Shown here: piece by piece, positions 22,980 to 30,083 of the stretch | Layout of the letters: every line of letters starts with the position of its first letter | How positions within the stretch are numbered: the stretch's first letter is position 1 | Origin: Pseudoxanthomonas sp. | GTDB taxonomy: Bacteria > Pseudomonadota > Gammaproteobacteria > Xanthomonadales > Xanthomonadaceae | DNA length: 36,497 nucleotides | Direction of reading: 5' to 3' | Assembly: GCA_035687185.1 (NCBI GenBank) | Contig: DASRYN010000151.1 | Coordinates: 1 to 36,497, forward strand | Made by a program: the position numbers and the translations under genes | Notes under the pieces: generated by a model | Seen by the model: only the letters and a program-made list of their open reading frames with translations | Told to the model about the DNA's origin: nothing | Database searches by the model: none

Positions 22980-23891
22980 ATGCGCAGATGGATCCAGGCC
23001 GTGGTTTGGGGCCTGCTGCTGGCCGTCCTGCCGGTCGCACGGGCCGAGGACAGCCACGTGCTGGTGCTGGGCCGCATCAGCGACGACCCCGCCGCCCACT
23101 ACGACCAGCTCAAGGCGCTGCTGGACTACGTGGTGCCGCGCATGCGCGAGGTGGGCATCACCGAGGGGCGCGTGCTGATGGCGCGCGACGCGCAGCAGAT
23201 GGCCAGCTATCTGCGGCGCGGCCGGGTGGACTGGGTCACCGAGACCGCCAGCACCGCGGTGCAGCTGCAGAAACGCGCCGGCGCCCGCCTGCTGCTGCTG
23301 ACCGAACGCGGCGGCGTGAGCCGCTACCACACGGTGTTCTTCGCCCGCCGCGGCGGGCCGGTGCGCACGCTCCAGGACCTGCGCGGCCGCACCCTGGCCC
23401 TGCAGAGCACCGCCTCCACCAGCGCCTACATGGTGCCGATGACCACGCTGCTCGAGGCCGGGCTGGAGCCGGAGATCCTGCTCAGCCCCGGCGACCTGCC
23501 CTCCGCCGGCAGGGTGGGCTACCTGTTCGCCCGCTCCGAGCTCAACATCACGGTCTGGGTGCAGAAGCGGCTGGTGGACGCGGGCGCGATCAGCAACCTG
23601 GACTGGAGCGACCCGGACCGGATGCCGCCGGCGTTCAAGGCCGACCTGGAAGTCTTCCACGAGACCCCGGCCTATCCCCGCGCGCTGGAACTGGTGCGGG
23701 CCGACCTGCGGCCGGAGGTCGAGGCGCGGCTGCGCGAGGTGCTGCTGGAGGCCGCCGCGGACCCGGAGGCGGGGCAGGCCCTGAAGCTGTTCTTCGATAC
23801 CTCGCGCTTCCTGCCGCTGGACCAGGAGCTGGAGCGCGCGCTGGACGGGCTCCGCGCAGGCGTGGCCCGGGTGCGCGCGGAGGTCGAATGA
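22980..23891 (+). CDS. Periplasmic phosphate/phosphite/phosphonate-binding protein (PhnD-like)
   Basis: Signal peptide ending ARA; LQDLRGRTLALQSTASTSAYMVP matches the DL.G..... S.TS.Y.P pattern; VDAGA; start could be 22953. Confidence 0.8.
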   Translation: MRRWIQAVVWGLLLAVLPVARAEDSHVLVLGRISDDPAAHYDQLKALLDYVVPRMREVGITEGRVLMARDAQQMASYLRRGRVDWVTETASTAVQLQKRAGARLLLLTERGGVSRYHTVFFARRGGPVRTLQDLRGRTLALQSTASTSAYMVPMTTLLEAGLEPEILLSPGDLPSAGRVGYLFARSELNITVWVQKRLVDAGAISNLDWSDPDRMPPAFKADLEVFHETPAYPRALELVRADLRPEVEARLREVLLEAAADPEAGQALKLFFDTSRFLPLDQELERALDGLRAGVARVRAEVE

Positions 23892-26011
23892 AGCTGCGCT
23901 TCGGCCTGCAGGCGCGGTTCCTGGCGGCCATGTCGCTGGTGCTGCTGGTGGTCCTGGTGCTGCTGGGGCTGCTGCTGCACCGGCAGCGGCTGGTGCAGCG
24001 CGAGTCGGAAACGCTCAGCAGCGCGGTCATGCACCGCATGGTGGACGAGTACCTGCACTCGCACGGCCGCGCGCTGGCCGGCAACCTGGCCGACAACCTG
24101 GCCAATCCGCTCTACTACTCCGACCTGGACGCCATCGGCCGCATCCTGCGCGACCACATGCGCGACGGGCTGGTGGAATACCTGCTGGTGTTCGACGCCA
24201 ACGGCCGGCTGGTCCACGACGGCTCCACCGAGATCGCCGGCTACGGCCGGCTGATGCCGGACCCGCTGGCCGCGCGCGCGGTGGGCGCGGAGGAGCCGGT
24301 GAGCCAGGCCACCGCGCGGGTGCTGGAGATGTCCGCGCCGATCCGGGTGGGCAGCAAGCGCATCGGCGGCATCCGCGTGGGCCTGTCGCTGGAGGCGGCC
24401 CACCGCTTCGAGCGGCGCAGCGCCGAACGGCTGCACGCGCAGATCCAGGCGCTGTCCCAGCGCCACCGCGGCTGGCTCGGGCTGCTGCTGGCGCTGCTGC
24501 TGGGCGTGGTGGTGCTCACCGCCTGGTACGTGCAGCGCACCCTGGTCCGGCCGATCCGGCAGCTGGCGCAGTCCGCGCGCCGCATCGAGGCCGGCGACTA
24601 CAGCGTCCGCCAGCACGCCGGCAACCGCAACGACGAGCTGGGCGACCTGCAGCGCGCCTTCGACCGCATGAGCGAGAGCGTGGCCCGCCACGACCGCGAC
24701 GTGCGCCGCATGGCCTACACCGACGCGCTGACCGGCCTGACCAACCGCCTCGCGTTCCGCGAGGCGCTGGACCACCGGCTGATGCTGCTGCGCGGCTCCG
24801 GCCGCCAGCTGGCGCTGCTGTTCGCCGACATCGACGACTTCAAGCGGGTCAACGACACCCTCGGCCACGAGGCCGGCGACGAGGCGCTGCTGCAGTTCGC
24901 CAACCGCATCCGCGAGGCGGTGGAGCGCTACGGCGGCGACGACGCGCTGCTGGCCCGCTTCGGCGGCGACGAGTTCGTGATCCTGGTCCAGGAGGGCGAC
25001 GTGCGCGCCGTGGCCACGCGCCTGGCCGAAGTGCTGGTGGCCGAGCTGCGGCGGCCGCTGGACATCCACGACCGGCAGGTGTTCCTGGGCACGTCCATCG
25101 GCATCACCCTGTTCCCGGAGGACGCGTCCAGCGCCAGCGCGCTGATGAAGAACGGCGACATCGCCATGTACCAGGCCAAGGTCGCCGGCAAGAACGGCTT
25201 CCGCTTCTACAGCCGCGCCATGGACCACGCGGTGGAGCGCCGCGTGCACATGGAGCAGGAGCTGCGCGGCGCCTGGGAGCGCGGCGAGCTGAGCGTGGTG
25301 TACCAGCCCGTCTGCCGCACCAGCGACGGCCGGGTGGTCGGCGCCGAGGCGCTGCTGCGCTGGCAGCACCCGATGCTGGGCACCATCGCCCCGTCGGTGT
25401 TCATCGACGTGGCCGAGCAGAGCGGCCTGATCGAGAGCATCGGCCCGCGCGTGCTGTACACCGCCTGCGCCGAGGCCGTGCGCTGGCTGGAGCTGGGCAC
25501 CGAGAAGCTGTTCGTCTCGGTGAACATCTCCCCGCGCCAGTTGCGCCGGGGCGACCTGCCCGACATCGTCGCCGGCTGCCTGCGCGAGACCGGCCTGCCG
25601 GCGTCCTGCCTGCACCTGGAGCTGACCGAGACCACGGTGATCAGCGACGAGCTGCAGGCCGCCGCGCTGCTGGCGCGGCTGCACAGCACCGGGGTGAAGG
25701 TCTGGCTGGACGACTTCGGCACCGGCTTCTCGGGGCTCAGCCACCTGCGCCGCGTGCCGGTGGACGGGGTGAAGATCGACCGCAGCTTCGTGGCCGACCT
25801 GCAGCGCGATCCGGACGACCTGGCCCTGACCACCGCCATCATCGCCATGGCCCACTCGCTGGGGATCACCGTGGTGGCCGAAGGCGTGGAGAAGGAGGCG
25901 CAGTACAAGCTGCTGGCCGAGCGCGGCTGCGACCTGGTCCAGGGCTACTGGCTCAGCCACCCGGTCAGCGCGCCGGAGTTCACCCACCTGCTGGCGCGGC
26001 GGATGCGCTGA
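23888..26011 (+). CDS. Membrane diguanylate cyclase/phosphodiesterase (TM-periplasmic-TM-HAMP-GGDEF-EAL)
   Basis: ATG overlaps the upstream stop; two TM segments; HAMP (PIRQLA..RNDELGDL); DIDDFKRVNDTLGH, RFGGDEF; AEALLRW, VNIS, DDFGTGFS, KIDRSF, EGVE, QGY. Confidence 0.93.
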   Translation: MKLRFGLQARFLAAMSLVLLVVLVLLGLLLHRQRLVQRESETLSSAVMHRMVDEYLHSHGRALAGNLADNLANPLYYSDLDAIGRILRDHMRDGLVEYLLVFDANGRLVHDGSTEIAGYGRLMPDPLAARAVGAEEPVSQATARVLEMSAPIRVGSKRIGGIRVGLSLEAAHRFERRSAERLHAQIQALSQRHRGWLGLLLALLLGVVVLTAWYVQRTLVRPIRQLAQSARRIEAGDYSVRQHAGNRNDELGDLQRAFDRMSESVARHDRDVRRMAYTDALTGLTNRLAFREALDHRLMLLRGSGRQLALLFADIDDFKRVNDTLGHEAGDEALLQFANRIREAVERYGGDDALLARFGGDEFVILVQEGDVRAVATRLAEVLVAELRRPLDIHDRQVFLGTSIGITLFPEDASSASALMKNGDIAMYQAKVAGKNGFRFYSRAMDHAVERRVHMEQELRGAWERGELSVVYQPVCRTSDGRVVGAEALLRWQHPMLGTIAPSVFIDVAEQSGLIESIGPRVLYTACAEAVRWLELGTEKLFVSVNISPRQLRRGDLPDIVAGCLRETGLPASCLHLELTETTVISDELQAAALLARLHSTGVKVWLDDFGTGFSGLSHLRRVPVDGVKIDRSFVADLQRDPDDLALTTAIIAMAHSLGITVVAEGVEKEAQYKLLAERGCDLVQGYWLSHPVSAPEFTHLLARRMR

Positions 26012-26017
26012 GCCGCG

Positions 26018-26662
26018 TCAGGCGCGCAGGCGCTGCAGCCAGGCGCCGACCAGGTCGGTCAGCTGTTCCGAGAGCAGGCCCATGCCCACCAGGGTGGCGG
26101 CCGACACCAGCCACAGCGCCAGCAGCAGCGCGCCGTCGCGCTCCATCAGCGCCAGCGCGTAGAGCAGCAGCAGGCTGGCGAACAGGTAGTTGGTCAGCGG
26201 GATCGGCAGGGCCAGCAGAACGCCGAGCAGCACCAGCAGCAGGCCGGTGAAGGCGTTGGCCAGGCGGCTGCCGGCCAGCGGCTGCAGGCGCGGCCGGATC
26301 AGGTGTTCCAGCCGCGCCAGCCACGGCCCGATGCGGTCGCAGAAGCGCACCATGGTGCGGCGCCGCGGTCCACGCCGGCCGATGAAGCCCGGCAGCCACG
26401 GCTGCTGCAGGCCGACCAGCATCTGCAGCCCGATCAGCACCACCAGCGGGCCGCCCACCGCGCCGCCGACGCCGGGAATGGGGATGAAGCCGGGCAGGAT
26501 GGAGACGAACAGGAACATGCCGAAGGCGCTGCGGCGCAGCCCGGCCAGCAGGTCGTGCAGGGTCAGCACCTGGTCCGAGTCTCCCTCGGAGAAGGCGCGG
26601 AGCAGCCGGGTGACGCCGTTGCCGGCGGGCGGCGCGCCCGGGGGCTCAGACCGCGGTGACAT
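26018..26662 (-). CDS. exoD: ExoD-family membrane protein
   Basis: FIPIPG, GLQQPWLP, LEHLIRPRL, LALPIPLTN, ERDG motifs; overlaps the upstream gene by 17 bp. Confidence 0.85.
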   Translation of the reverse strand: MSPRSEPPGAPPAGNGVTRLLRAFSEGDSDQVLTLHDLLAGLRRSAFGMFLFVSILPGFIPIPGVGGAVGGPLVVLIGLQMLVGLQQPWLPGFIGRRGPRRRTMVRFCDRIGPWLARLEHLIRPRLQPLAGSRLANAFTGLLLVLLGVLLALPIPLTNYLFASLLLLYALALMERDGALLLALWLVSAATLVGMGLLSEQLTDLVGAWLQRLRA

Positions 26663-27962
26663 CGTCGTCCTGCGGCAGCCGGCGCAGCAGCAGCTTGTCG
26701 ATGCGTGCCCCGTCCAGGTCCACCACCTCGATGCGCCACCCGGCCCAGTCGAAATGCTCGCCCACGTGCGGGATGCGGCCGAAGTGCGCGATGCACATGC
26801 CCGCCAGCGTGTGGTAGTCCGCGTCGCCGGCGTCGGGCAGCGCCGCCCCGTCCATCAGCTCGCGCAGGTCCTCGGCCGGCAGCGTGCCGCCGACCAGCAG
26901 CGAGCCGTCGTCGCGGGCGACCACCAGCGCGTCCTCGTCGGCGTTCTCCACCGCCTGCAGGCGGCCGACGATGGCGCCCATCAGGTCGCTGACCGTCACC
27001 AGGCCCTGGATGTCGCCGTACTCGTCCACCACCAGCGCCATCGACTGCTGTTCCTCGCGGAAGATCTCCAGCAGCTTCATCGCGTGGGTGGACTCGGAGA
27101 CGAACAGCGGCGTGCGCAGCCCGCGCAGCAGCGCCTGCCCGGCCGGCGGCTGCCCCAGGTCGTGCAGCAGCGCCTTGACCTCCAGCACGCCGGCCACGTC
27201 GTGGTCGCCGCCGCGGTAGACCGGGTAGCGCGAGTACTGGTGCTCGCGCATGGTCTCCAGGTTCTCCTCGGGCGGGACCTCGGCGTCCAGCCAGGCGATG
27301 CGGTTGCGCGGGGTCATCATGCTCGCCGCGGTGCGGTCGCCGAGGCGGATGACGCGGTTGACCATGTCGCGCTCGTGCGCGTCGATCACGCCCTGCTCGT
27401 GGCTCTCGGCCACCAGCATGCGGATCTCTTCCTCGCTGATGGTGCTGGCCTCGTCCTTGCCCAGCCCGAGCAGGCGCAGCACCAGGCGGGTGCTGTGCGA
27501 GAGCAGCCACACGAAGGGGAAGGCGATGCGGGCCAGCCAGCCCATCGGCAGGGCGACGAAGCCGGCGATGCGCTCCGGCGCGGTGATGGCCAGGCGCTTG
27601 GGCACCAGCTCGCCGAAGATCAGCGTCAGGTAGGTGATCAGCGCCACGGCCACCAGCTTGCCCAGGGTGCCGGCGTACTCGCCCAGCGCCGGGACCACGC
27701 GCGCCAGCCAGCCGCCGATGGCCAGGCCGATGGCCTCGCCGCCGAACAGGCCGGTGAGGATGCCGATCAGGGTGATCCCGATCTGCACCGTGGACAGGAA
27801 GTTCTCCGGCTTCTCGGACAGGGCCAGGGCCCGGGCCGCGCGCTTGCTGGCCTGGGCCAGCTGCTTGAGCCGGCTGCGGCGCGAGGTCATCACCGACATC
27901 TCCGACATCGCGAAGAAGCCGTTGAGCAGGACCAGGGCCAGTACGATCAGCAGCTCAGCCAC
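26646..27962 (-). CDS. Hemolysin-family/CorB-like CNNM-CBS-CBS-CorC membrane protein (putative Mg2+/cation transport)
   Basis: LNGFFAMSE, LSTVQIGITL, FGELVPKRLA, MTPR, YSRYPV, VVDEYG and C-terminal CorC domain; GTG start has only a weak SD. Confidence 0.9.
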   Translation of the reverse strand: MAELLIVLALVLLNGFFAMSEMSVMTSRRSRLKQLAQASKRAARALALSEKPENFLSTVQIGITLIGILTGLFGGEAIGLAIGGWLARVVPALGEYAGTLGKLVAVALITYLTLIFGELVPKRLAITAPERIAGFVALPMGWLARIAFPFVWLLSHSTRLVLRLLGLGKDEASTISEEEIRMLVAESHEQGVIDAHERDMVNRVIRLGDRTAASMMTPRNRIAWLDAEVPPEENLETMREHQYSRYPVYRGGDHDVAGVLEVKALLHDLGQPPAGQALLRGLRTPLFVSESTHAMKLLEIFREEQQSMALVVDEYGDIQGLVTVSDLMGAIVGRLQAVENADEDALVVARDDGSLLVGGTLPAEDLRELMDGAALPDAGDADYHTLAGMCIAHFGRIPHVGEHFDWAGWRIEVVDLDGARIDKLLLRRLPQDDDVTAV

Positions 27963-28047
27963 GCCGGCGGACCCCGCGGCGAGGAGCGGAAAGCGTGCGG
28001 CCGGGGCGGATGCGCCGGGAAGAGGGGGGAGTCGGGTCGTCGTCCAT
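27955..28047 (-). CDS. Putative MgtL-like leader peptide (30 aa, MDDDPTPPSSRRIR...)
   Basis: First ATG after an extended -10 (TGcTAAGAT, 28077-28085); acidic/Pro N-terminus; stop overlaps the CorB-like GTG. Confidence 0.5.
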   Translation of the reverse strand: MDDDPTPPSSRRIRPGRTLSAPRRGVRRRG

Positions 28048-28168
28048 AGGCTGCGCCCCGGGGGGGCGCGGGCCGCATCTTAGCAAATGCGCGCCGCCCG
28101 GCCTCACGCGGCCGTGACGCCGCCCGCGCCCGCCGCCGGCAGCCGCAGTATCCCGGCCGGGCGCCGGG

Positions 28169-28186
28169 CTGTCATAATTCCGCAAT
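28169..28186 (+). promoter_or_regulatory. Pho-box-like site overlapping the -10 of the DUF47-pit operon
   Basis: CTGTCAT-aatt-CCGCAAT containing TGtCATAAT, 21 nt before ATG 28208. Confidence 0.55.
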
Positions 28187-28207
28187 CCATCCGCAGGACA
28201 GCCTCCC

Positions 28208-28834
28208 ATGTTCTCACTGCAGACCATCTTCGGTTCCGGCAAGCAGTTCTTCGTCCTGCTGGACGAGGCGGCCGAGGCGGCCCACGACAGCACCAGGGCG
28301 CTGTACGAGATGATGAAGGCCTCCGACCGGCAGCCGGCGCTGGACGGCTTCAAGCTGGCCCGCCAGCGCGAGCGCGCGGCTTCGGAGAAGATCGGCAAGG
28401 CGCTGGTGGAGAGCTTCATCACCCCGCTGGAGCGCGAGGACATCGAGGCGCTGGGCTCGGCGCTGTACAAGATCCCCAAGCAGGTGGAGAAGTTCGCCGA
28501 CCGCTACTCGCTGGCGACCCAGCACCTGGCCCACATCGACTTCGCGCCGCGCGCGGCCATGCTGGAGCAGGCCGCGTCCGTGGTGGTGGACATGGTGCGC
28601 GAGCTGCGGCACATGAACCTGGACCGCATGACCGCGCTCAACGACAAGCTCCGCTCGATCGAGAACGAGGCCGACCGGCTGATGCTGGAGCTGTACCGCG
28701 ACATCTATTCCGGGCGGCTGGACCACCTGCAGATGTTCCTGCTCAAGGAGTTCTTCGAGATCCTGGAGAAGGCCATCGACCGCTGCCGCGAGGCGGGCGT
28801 GGTCGCGTACCAGATCGTGCTGAAGAACTCGTGA
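28208..28834 (+). CDS. DUF47 / PhoU-like Pit accessory protein
   Basis: SFITPLEREDI and IENEAD motifs, helical protein, upstream of pit. Confidence 0.9.
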   Translation: MFSLQTIFGSGKQFFVLLDEAAEAAHDSTRALYEMMKASDRQPALDGFKLARQRERAASEKIGKALVESFITPLEREDIEALGSALYKIPKQVEKFADRYSLATQHLAHIDFAPRAAMLEQAASVVVDMVRELRHMNLDRMTALNDKLRSIENEADRLMLELYRDIYSGRLDHLQMFLLKEFFEILEKAIDRCREAGVVAYQIVLKNS

Positions 28835-28964
28835 TGGCCGGCGCAGGGTTTTCCACGGGCGCGCCGGCCGCGAACGCGCGCGCCCGGATCCGCTTCGACG
28901 CCGCGCGGCCCGGCCGCGCCGGCCCGGCCGCGGCGACGGCGGCCGACACGCAGGGGGTGATGCC

Positions 28965-30083
28965 ATGCTGACGCTCGTGCTGGTGGTGATCCTGGCCGCG
29001 CTCGTGTTCGAGTTCATCAACGGCTTCCACGACACCGCCAACTCCATCGCCACCGTGGTGGCCACCAAGGTGCTCTCGCCGGGGCACGCGGTGATGCTGG
29101 CCGCGGTGATGAACCTGATCGGCGCCCTGGCCGGCACCGCGGTGGCCAAGACCATCGCTTCGGGCCTGGTGGACGTGAGCGTGGTGGAGGTCACCTCGCA
29201 GGTGATCCTGTGCGCGCTGCTGGGCGGCATCATCTGGAACCTGATCACCTGGTGGTTCGGCCTGCCGTCCTCGTCCTCGCACGCGCTGATCGGCGGGCTG
29301 TGCGGCGCGGCCCTGGCCGCCGCCCACAACGACTGGAACGCGCTGATCTGGTCGCAGGAGGCCGGCGACTGGACCAAGAACCAGGGCCTGCTGTGGAAGG
29401 TGTTCCTTCCCATGATCACCTCGCCGCTGACCGGCTTCCTGCTCGGCGTGGCGACGATGCTGCTGCTGTGGGCGATCATCGCCGGCATGGCGCGCGCCGG
29501 CGGCGTGCTGCGGCGGATGGCGCGGCCGCGCTGGGTCAACGCCTTCTTCGGCAAGGCGCAGATCCTCTCGGCGGCCTACATGGGCTTCGCCCACGGCCAC
29601 AACGACGCGCAGAAGACCATGGGCATCATCGCCCTGACCCTGTTCGCGGCCGAGTCCGCCGGCACCCTCGACGACCTGCCGGGCTGGCTGGCGTTCCTGC
29701 ACCCCGGCGCGGGCGAGCAGGACATCGCCACCTGGATCGTGATCACCTGCGCCATCGTGATGGCGCTGGGCACGGCCTCGGGCGGCTGGCGCATCATCAA
29801 GACGCTGGGCCACAAGATGGTCAAGCTGCACCCGATCAACGGCTTCGCCGCCGAGACCAGCTCGGCCACGGTGCTGACCCTGGCCGCGCATTTCGGCATG
29901 CCGGTGTCGACCACGCACAGCATCTCCACCGCGATCATGGGCGTGGGCTTCGCCAAGAACCCGCGCGCGCTGAAGTTCGGCGTGATCGAGCGGATCCTCT
30001 GGGCGTGGATCCTGACCATCCCGGCCGCCGGCGGCCTGGCCTACCTGATCCTGCGCGCGATGGAGGCGCTGGGCTGGGCCTGA
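28965..30083 (+). CDS. pit: PiT-family inorganic phosphate transporter
   Basis: FINGFHDTANSIAT, GLPSSSSHALIGG, AHGHNDAQKTMG, GMPVSTTH. Confidence 0.94.
   Translation: MLTLVLVVILAALVFEFINGFHDTANSIATVVATKVLSPGHAVMLAAVMNLIGALAGTAVAKTIASGLVDVSVVEVTSQVILCALLGGIIWNLITWWFGLPSSSSHALIGGLCGAALAAAHNDWNALIWSQEAGDWTKNQGLLWKVFLPMITSPLTGFLLGVATMLLLWAIIAGMARAGGVLRRMARPRWVNAFFGKAQILSAAYMGFAHGHNDAQKTMGIIALTLFAAESAGTLDDLPGWLAFLHPGAGEQDIATWIVITCAIVMALGTASGGWRIIKTLGHKMVKLHPINGFAAETSSATVLTLAAHFGMPVSTTHSISTAIMGVGFAKNPRALKFGVIERILWAWILTIPAAGGLAYLILRAMEALGWA

Follow-up and report, generated by a model that had tools for sequence, protein, structure and literature searches.

A conserved leader reading frame with an acidic-proline start ahead of a CNNM/CorB-family transporter gene of the Xanthomonadaceae, and its possible role as a ribosome-destabilisation switch

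The window analysed here, the whole of a 36,497-nucleotide stretch of Pseudoxanthomonas sp. DNA (contig DASRYN010000151.1), carries on its minus strand a short open reading frame (ORF) that runs out of frame into the start of a gene for a CNNM/CorB-family membrane transporter. Comparison with related loci indicates that this leader is a real, family-wide and apparently unannotated ORF, and it is very probably translated. The features that appear to be kept in it are an acidic run with proline at codon 5, an open frame and arrival at the start codon of the transporter; its length, body and phase seem free to vary. We suggest that the leader could be a coupled ribosome-destabilisation sensor for the transporter gene and the exoD gene behind it (corB-exoD), with a sign opposite to that of MgtL, the leader of mgtA in E. 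coli and Salmonella, and we give this proposal about an even chance of being correct.

Distribution and conservation of the leader ORF

The transporter was searched for in 151 genomes of the Lysobacteraceae (Xanthomonadaceae), 150 of which were scored. From this family draw we analysed the 30 top loci and the next 100 rows; the unpublished genome G084 and all weaker or partial rows further down were excluded. We added 80 named loci, some of them duplicates of loci in the draw, and, of 43 listed matches in other families of the order, 15 loci. A leader was called when an ATG lying 30-165 nt ahead of the transporter start was followed by Asp, Glu or His, with at least three Asp, Glu or Pro among residues 2-7. 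By this rule 85 family loci carry a leader, 43 do not and two have too little upstream DNA (85/128 scorable). All 73 named Pseudoxanthomonas, Stenotrophomonas and Xanthomonas loci with enough upstream DNA have one, and none of the 15 loci from other families does. The initial annotation of this stretch, made from the one sequence, had suggested testing whether an M[DE]DDP-type upstream ORF is conserved across the family; its presence in 85 of 128 orthologs is far beyond chance.

Leader lengths range from 43 to 152 nt, the ORFs having 16-55 codons, and the bodies cannot be aligned. Between codon 6 and 9 nt before the transporter start, none of the 85 has a stop in the leader frame, whereas 27 and 28 have one in the remaining frames, and parsimony on a tree of 158 leader-bearing loci counts 0 changes in stop presence, against 22 and 25. 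Frame is kept in 51 of 64 length changes, where one third would be expected under neutrality; 13 switch it, and only 1 change leads into the frame of the transporter. With the degenerate leader of locus L007 included, in-frame arrivals number 2 of 14 (p ~0.007, calculated by hand against an expectation of one half).

The beginning of the leader is its best-conserved part. The start codon is always ATG; codon 2 encodes Asp in 78 and Glu in 6 of the 85, codon 3 Asp in 78 and Glu in 4, codon 4 Asp in 68, and codon 5 Pro in 65 (CCT 27, CCA 15, CCC 13, CCG 10). Of the 85 leaders, 68 have three consecutive acidic residues in frame, as compared with 0 and 0 in the other frames. At least four Asp, Glu or Pro among the six residues 2-7 are found in 79 of 85 orthologs (five in the window's leader), but in only 2 of 440 control genes, picked from the window's own genome by an ATG plus Shine-Dalgarno (SD) rule. 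The proline share of codons 5-9 is 0.51 in frame and 0.29 and 0.24 out of frame. In codons 10-15 it is 0.21 against 0.30 and 0.27, so that there is no enrichment there and the C bias of the leader body lies at the nucleotide level; the body's C-G skew has a family median of 0.38, compared with 0.07 upstream of the 440 control genes.

If the leader were not translated, AUGGACGACGAC would be an RNA site, for example a target of RsmA/CsrA, whose consensus is ANGGA, or one strand of a helix. The near-fixed GAC codons would fit such a site, as would the G residues of the motif, which are predicted to be paired in many folds. However, when the acidic motif was searched for in the 128 loci with no requirement for a start, the triplet before it was ATG in 71 of 71 matches and never ACG, AGG or AAG, and stop avoidance and frame keeping span the whole leader. 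The candidate partner TCGTC is also equally common in leader-less (33/48) and leader-bearing (57/85) orthologs. We therefore regard an RNA site as very unlikely. A long-range helix between GACGAC and the Ile-Val codons of the transporter, seen in many folds, was rejected for the same reason.

Several caveats apply. The leader was defined by its own motif, and related genomes are not independent of each other; 43 of the 128 family orthologs fail the motif test, some of them as nested losses. Asp is encoded by GAC in 222 of 224 cases in leaders, against 87% in coding sequences, a nucleotide-level bias that the reading proposed below does not account for. The first base of the stop lies between -8 and +16 relative to the transporter start in 84 of 84 out-of-frame leaders, but stops at +5 and +13 are provided by codons of the transporter gene itself, and the stop position therefore carries no independent weight.

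In the protein tree, leader-bearing loci occupy one large clade and a portion of a second, with leader-less deeper branches and with nested losses. Three of the 43 orthologs that fail the motif have degenerate leaders at the same place (MENSSKPPP, MDASP and MDAAP), and some losses place a promoter directly ahead of the transporter ATG. At loci L194, L195, L199, L169, L188 and L197, an extended -10 or similar box lies ~8-25 nt before that ATG, which would give an mRNA with little or no 5' leader; the tree puts the loss inside the leader-bearing clade for L194, L195 and L199. A further group of leader-less loci (L124, L148, L170, L173, L175, L179, L182, L184, L186, L190, L191, L192, L196 and L207) shares a different design of the 5' region, seen by eye, that begins with a promoter-like TGGCATAGT box. 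The box is often followed by GGAG or GGAA and then by a GCCGG...CCGGC hairpin that ends a few bases ahead of the ATG, and some loci of this type hold a short out-of-frame GTG or TTG ORF.

Gene callers appear to miss the leader, since a look-up of three leader peptides in a set of 15 billion called proteins found none of them. At thresholds of E 0.001 for Pfam and E 0.1 for NCBIfam, the 30-residue peptide of the window matched no model, curated leader models included. A search of positions 27800-28300 against Rfam gave a single chance match (E 1.5), outside the leader, and no known RNA family.

The locus, its 5' end and the frame of the leader

The elements of the locus are listed below by window position. 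The -10 box, hairpin, ATG, ORF, stop and CCC CCC TCT codons had been placed accurately, base for base, in the initial annotation.

28077..28085, minus strand: extended -10 promoter box of the form TGnTAnnnT, TGCTAAGAT, from which the transcription start is predicted
28053..28069, minus strand: GC hairpin, folding with 7 bp, where the mRNA is predicted to begin, stopping 5 nt ahead of the AUG
27955..28047, minus strand: leader ORF MDDDPTPPSSRRIRPGRTLSAPRRGVRRRG, 30 aa, with no SD sequence; ATG at 28047 and TGA at 27957-27955
28024..28044, minus strand: acidic/proline N terminus DDDPTPP (codons 2-8), the predicted sensor, from residue conservation
28029-28021, minus strand: leader codons CCC CCC TCT
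27979..28032, minus strand: leader body, C-rich and G-poor (31 C and 10 G in 54 nt)
27971..27977, minus strand: SD-like GCGGGGT of the transporter gene, predicted by the fold to pair with the leader body
26646..27962, minus strand: CNNM/CorB-family membrane protein of 438 aa, with CNNM, paired CBS and CorC_HlyC domains
26018..26662, minus strand: exoD (PF06055), overlapping the 3' end of the transporter gene by 17 nt
28208..30083, plus strand: divergent neighbours, genes for a DUF47 (PhoU_div) protein and a Pit phosphate transporter, from a domain search; any role in the switch would be only hypothetical

The leader stop overlaps codons 2-3 of the transporter gene, which starts at GTG 27962. 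An extended -10 box lies 22-62 nt ahead of the leader ATG (searched within 75 nt) in 83 of 85 orthologs, compared with 0 of 1275 control windows inside coding sequences. SD-like pairing was seen at 8% of leader starts and 88% of transporter starts, and the leader start is the more accessible of the two, with an opening cost of 4.1 against 8.7 kcal/mol. In the 51 orthologs with a short 5' untranslated region (UTR), the 5' hairpin has a median z of -1.9 and ends 4-6 nt from the AUG in 38. The hairpin is not universal: in its place, the 32 orthologs with a long UTR show a C-rich tract that lacks structure (median z +0.15).

The C-rich body of the leader is a candidate Rho loading site and a possible pairing partner of the transporter SD. 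Opening positions -15 to +3 of the transporter start has a median cost of 13.3 kcal/mol at loci with a leader and 8.2 at those without. A specially selected anti-SD hairpin was ruled out, because occlusion of the SD was not stronger than in shuffles of the same bases (median z 0.28), and this result counts against the coupled switch that we propose below.

Other searches for transcripts, promoters and starts can be recorded here. XCV2906-2908, tried as the Xcv counterpart in the supplement of a differential RNA sequencing study (PMC3300014), do not fit, and the gene was not identified there. RNA sequencing runs screened for sequence words contained only 7-8% of them. The idea of a regulon of such leaders was also rejected: among 14 Asp/Glu- and Pro-rich ATG starts listed in the window's own genome, the only one with an extended -10 box is this leader, and among 8 cases in that genome of a promoter with a short overlapping ORF there was no other MDDDP-type leader.

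In phase, 36 of the 85 family leaders are of the +1 type, that is, the type in which a +1 slip would join the leader to the transporter; 48 are in the other out-of-frame phase and 1 is in frame. This distribution bears on the earlier suggestion that ribosomes make a programmed +1 shift at CCC-CCC-U and so produce an N-terminally extended transporter. On paper the shift is possible in the window, where the transporter frame is indeed open from CCC CCC TCT to the GTG and would add 28 residues, and a CCC-C/U site occurs in codons 5-10 of 27 of the 36 +1-type family leaders. Nevertheless, the 48 leaders of the other phase cannot be joined by a +1 slip, and even among +1-type leaders a stop often interrupts the transporter frame, which stays open beyond codon 8 in no more than 22 of the 36 from the family draw and 10 of the 72 from the named loci. 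A CCC-C/U site together with an open frame is found in just 15 of 36 and 7 of 72, and the extension is not conserved. Moreover, the best-conserved part is the acidic run with a proline at codon 5 encoded by any CCN (mostly CCT or CCA), which argues for destabilisation rather than CCC slippage. We regard a programmed frameshift as extremely improbable.

A more trivial explanation would be an assembly indel in the run of six C (six G on the plus strand) that masks a simple in-frame N terminus, or an ORF that arose by chance. The initial annotation had raised the need to check this run, and we did so with contigs of four sequencing runs aligned to the window, not with raw reads. The contig of run X1, possibly of the same source as the window, is identical across the leader stretch. 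Runs X2 and X3, from other studies, each gave one contig across 27911-28273 with one substitution and one gap, the gap being at 28060 in the hairpin loop and outside the run; a further, diverged X2 contig (26 differences, several indels) represents a relative. The run of six is thus unchanged in contigs from two other studies, which excludes an assembly indel as far as contigs show. In the complete genome L018 the leader is in frame with the transporter and its C run is one base shorter than in relatives, which could be real or a homopolymer error, but all family leaders except this one (84 of 85) lie out of frame. With these contigs and the conservation in 85 of 128 family orthologs, an indel or chance ORF was ruled out for this window, and we see practically no chance that it explains the leader. 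L007, the other in-frame case, has a leader that is both degenerate and shorter.

A possible coupled switch and its alternatives

In the mechanism that we suggest, transcription would begin a few bases past the extended -10 box, and ribosomes would start without an SD at the accessible leader AUG, as its conservation indicates. While the exit tunnel is still empty, Asp-Asp-Asp-Pro would destabilise the 70S ribosome, more so at low Mg2+, if the E. coli work applies here. After such an abort the transporter SD would stay folded into the C-rich leader, leaving corB and exoD off, and the naked RNA might load Rho and reinforce the off state, Rho loading sites being expected to be C-rich. A surviving ribosome would reach the stop at the transporter start, open the SD, and re-initiate or admit another ribosome. 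High Mg2+ or polyamines would allow the leader to be completed and corB-exoD to be on, and low Mg2+ would lead to abortion and the off state. The length, sequence and out-of-frame phase of the leader would be irrelevant, arrival at the start codon being decisive. The broader claim of the initial annotation, that a ribosome-based sensor controls the transporter and exoD, survives in this form, as the conserved, out-of-frame, MgtL-like leader is most likely such a sensor; its +1 frameshift does not.

The background for this mechanism comes largely from enterobacteria. Clusters of Asp, Glu and Pro directly after the initiator Met are reported to abort translation, more so at low Mg2+, and in the same work MgtL aborts through EPDP and the N terminus of YbeX/CorC may permit induction by Mg2+ (bioRxiv 2021.02.02.429294). 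Blocking translation of yoaL strongly lowers yoaE in E. coli (bioRxiv 511675). In Salmonella, mgpA (yoaE) and corC are induced by high Mg2+, a control described as still unexplained in 2025 (PMC12421838), and Mg2+ export is the presumed role of MpfA and YhdP, two relatives of CorB (PMC8242095). It is because of the yoaL coupling, the induction of mgpA and corC, and export by CorB relatives that we assign abortion at low cation to the off state and completion to the on state.

The transporter itself is probably an exporter, by analogy with these relatives. All three of its domains (CNNM, CBS pair and CorC_HlyC) score above cut-off, it is the sole CNNM-domain gene found in its assembly (82% complete), and its closest named relatives are Pseudoxanthomonas proteins with 81-86% identity. 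It matches MtCorB structures, with the GELxPK turn conserved. Its substrate may be Mg2+, a polyamine or another cation.

Other observations tell against the proposal or its Mg2+ sense. The best NCBIfam model is PaeA (NF052568), a polyamine exporter model, although at 275.8 bits against a cut-off of 500 the match is below threshold, and identity to E. coli PaeA is 29%. Among the Mg2+ ligands of MtCorB, G110 and E111 are conserved, but N, A and I stand at the positions of S21, S25 and S71. The overlapping ORFs baxL and argL are reported to repress their downstream genes (bioRxiv 511675), and acidic N termini are not always sufficient for an effect, which EttA modulates (PMC11282234).

The repression by baxL and argL leads to a reading of opposite sign, in which ribosomes crossing the overlap block the ribosome-binding site of the transporter, and abortion would turn the gene on at low Mg2+, as with MgtL. 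The transporter's own SD, present in 88% of loci, would suit such an arrangement. On the other hand, CorB/CorC-family proteins are reported to guard against excess cations and to be induced by high Mg2+ (PMC8242095, PMC12421838), and the two in-frame cases, L018 and the degenerate L007, would also give the high-Mg2+-on sign. The CorC proteins of the family point the same way: an acidic, small-residue start of the MSEDDS type was found in all 30 of the best 30 of 64 matches, and as this motif is in CorC's own N terminus, only the high-Mg2+-on sign would be possible there. We consider the opposite sign unlikely.

A second alternative keeps the coupling but changes the signal, so that the leader would respond to how its proline codons are decoded, or to a rescue factor (EF-P, charged or methylated tRNA-Pro, or EttA), and not to cation-dependent drop-off. 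Consistent with this, proline is enriched in frame in codons 5-9, the rare codons CCT and CCA make up 42 of 65 codons for Pro5, against 5% in coding sequences, and EttA is reported to act on the acidic residues of MgtL (PMC11282234). However, Pro-Pro occurs in frame in 38 of 85 leaders, little more than in the other frames (31 and 25), Pro-Pro-Pro occurs in 23, and runs of three acidic residues are present in frame in 68 leaders but in neither of the other frames. There is, in our opinion, only a small chance that it is correct.

It is also conceivable that no signal is sensed, and that the leader is a constitutive device that delivers ribosomes to a folded start or damps synthesis of a membrane protein to a constant low rate. 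Coupling needs just a frame open to the start, as the variable body shows. A constitutive device would fail to account for an MDDDP that is kept beside a diverging body, or for the rarity of such starts among the control genes, and we think it quite unlikely.

In the coupled destabilisation reading, a sensor that lies in a frame of its own must be tied to its target, and the overlap would do this. A wider scheme, in which the Mg2+ homeostasis of xanthomonads would be served by a set of ribosome sensors (the SD-less MDDDP leader with its 5' hairpin, coupling ribosome survival to the CorB exporter, a destabilising N terminus of CorC and a leaderless three-codon ORF ahead of the importer gene mgtE), is a tentative idea that we hold to be doubtful. 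In this scheme no earlier destabilisation switch would be known to turn on an exporter through translational coupling, as the corB leader would. The CorC/YbeX orthologs with an MSEDDS-type start (L244:977-1861 minus (G000:C260) and L280-L309) resemble the destabilising N terminus of E. coli YbeX. Upstream of mgtE, a -10-like GATAAT is followed after 6-7 nt by a three-codon ORF (MNA, MNI, MNT, MND, MDT or MTT) at a distance of 44-101 nt from the ATG of mgtE. This arrangement is present in 21 of the best 30 of 59 matching genomes (L246:149-173 (G000:C150), L250-L278), and in many cases a hairpin was seen by eye after the ORF. This mini-ORF is a candidate leaderless control of a Mg2+ importer.

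Relatives of the system and neighbouring genes

The leader is MgtL-like in its sensor and YoaL-like in its wiring, and a member of neither group. Like MgtL, it is a short ORF with acidic residues and proline directly after Met (EPDP in MgtL, DDDP here) and stands ahead of a cation-transport gene. The target of MgtL, however, is the P-type importer MgtA and not a CNNM/CorB protein, and finishing MgtL is reported to promote Rho termination (PMC11282234), whereas completion here is predicted to switch a likely exporter on. The present leaders also differ in having no SD, in their length and in overlapping the start of their target.

Like the leaders described here, YoaL, the leader of yoaE (mgpA), is an out-of-frame ORF overlapping the start of a gene for a membrane protein with CBS and CorC domains; its overlap with yoaE is 13 nt, like the second frame class of our leaders, and yoaE is reported to need YoaL translation (bioRxiv 511675), as we predict for the coupling here. 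In contrast, YoaL starts with MDRHRRH and has no acidic/proline run (by direct reading, without an alignment statistic), and the membrane domain of YoaE is TerC, not CNNM. For YbeX/CorC it has likewise been proposed that an acidic N terminus increases the amount of an efflux protein once ribosomes are stabilised by Mg2+ (bioRxiv 2021.02.02.429294), but in that case the protein itself carries the sensor. The present leader has its own frame and leaves the first membrane helix of the transporter untouched.

MtCorB, MpfA, YhdP and PaeA (YtfL) share with our transporter the domain order CNNM, CBS pair, CorC_HlyC and the GELxPK turn. The transporter nevertheless falls below the PaeA cut-off and does not keep the three serine ligands of MtCorB, and E. 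coli paeA has no annotated leader ORF and, by eye, no such motif upstream.

In agreement with the initial annotation, no description of this leader in xanthomonads was found in the full-text literature, searched without most subscription papers; Xanthomonas tables of short ORFs and transcription start sites outside that search could list it. One literature match to 'MDDDP', an MDDD-PpiB reporter with slow deformylation (PMC4745127), is unrelated to the leader, as are two papers on junctions.

We believe that the leader offers a compact answer to the question of how CNNM/CorB-type cation exporters switch on, with over 150 natural variants whose common core is an acidic-proline start and arrival at the start of the target. 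If our reading is true, natural ribosome destabilisation would operate here with the sign of MgtL reversed, in the family to which Xanthomonas and Stenotrophomonas belong.

The transporter gene and exoD likely form one operon. The exoD gene lies downstream at 82 of 85 leader-bearing family loci, compared with 33 of 43 leader-less ones, and a DUF47 gene lies upstream at 76 of the 85 leader-bearing loci. A second sigma-70-like site (ATGACA-17-GATACT, window positions 28147-28175, minus strand) partly coincides with the stretch that probably serves as promoter for the divergent DUF47-pit genes. On the other side of the locus, the plus strand at 23061-26011 carries a gene for a phosphonate-binding-type periplasmic protein followed by a HAMP-GGDEF-EAL gene, convergent with exoD.

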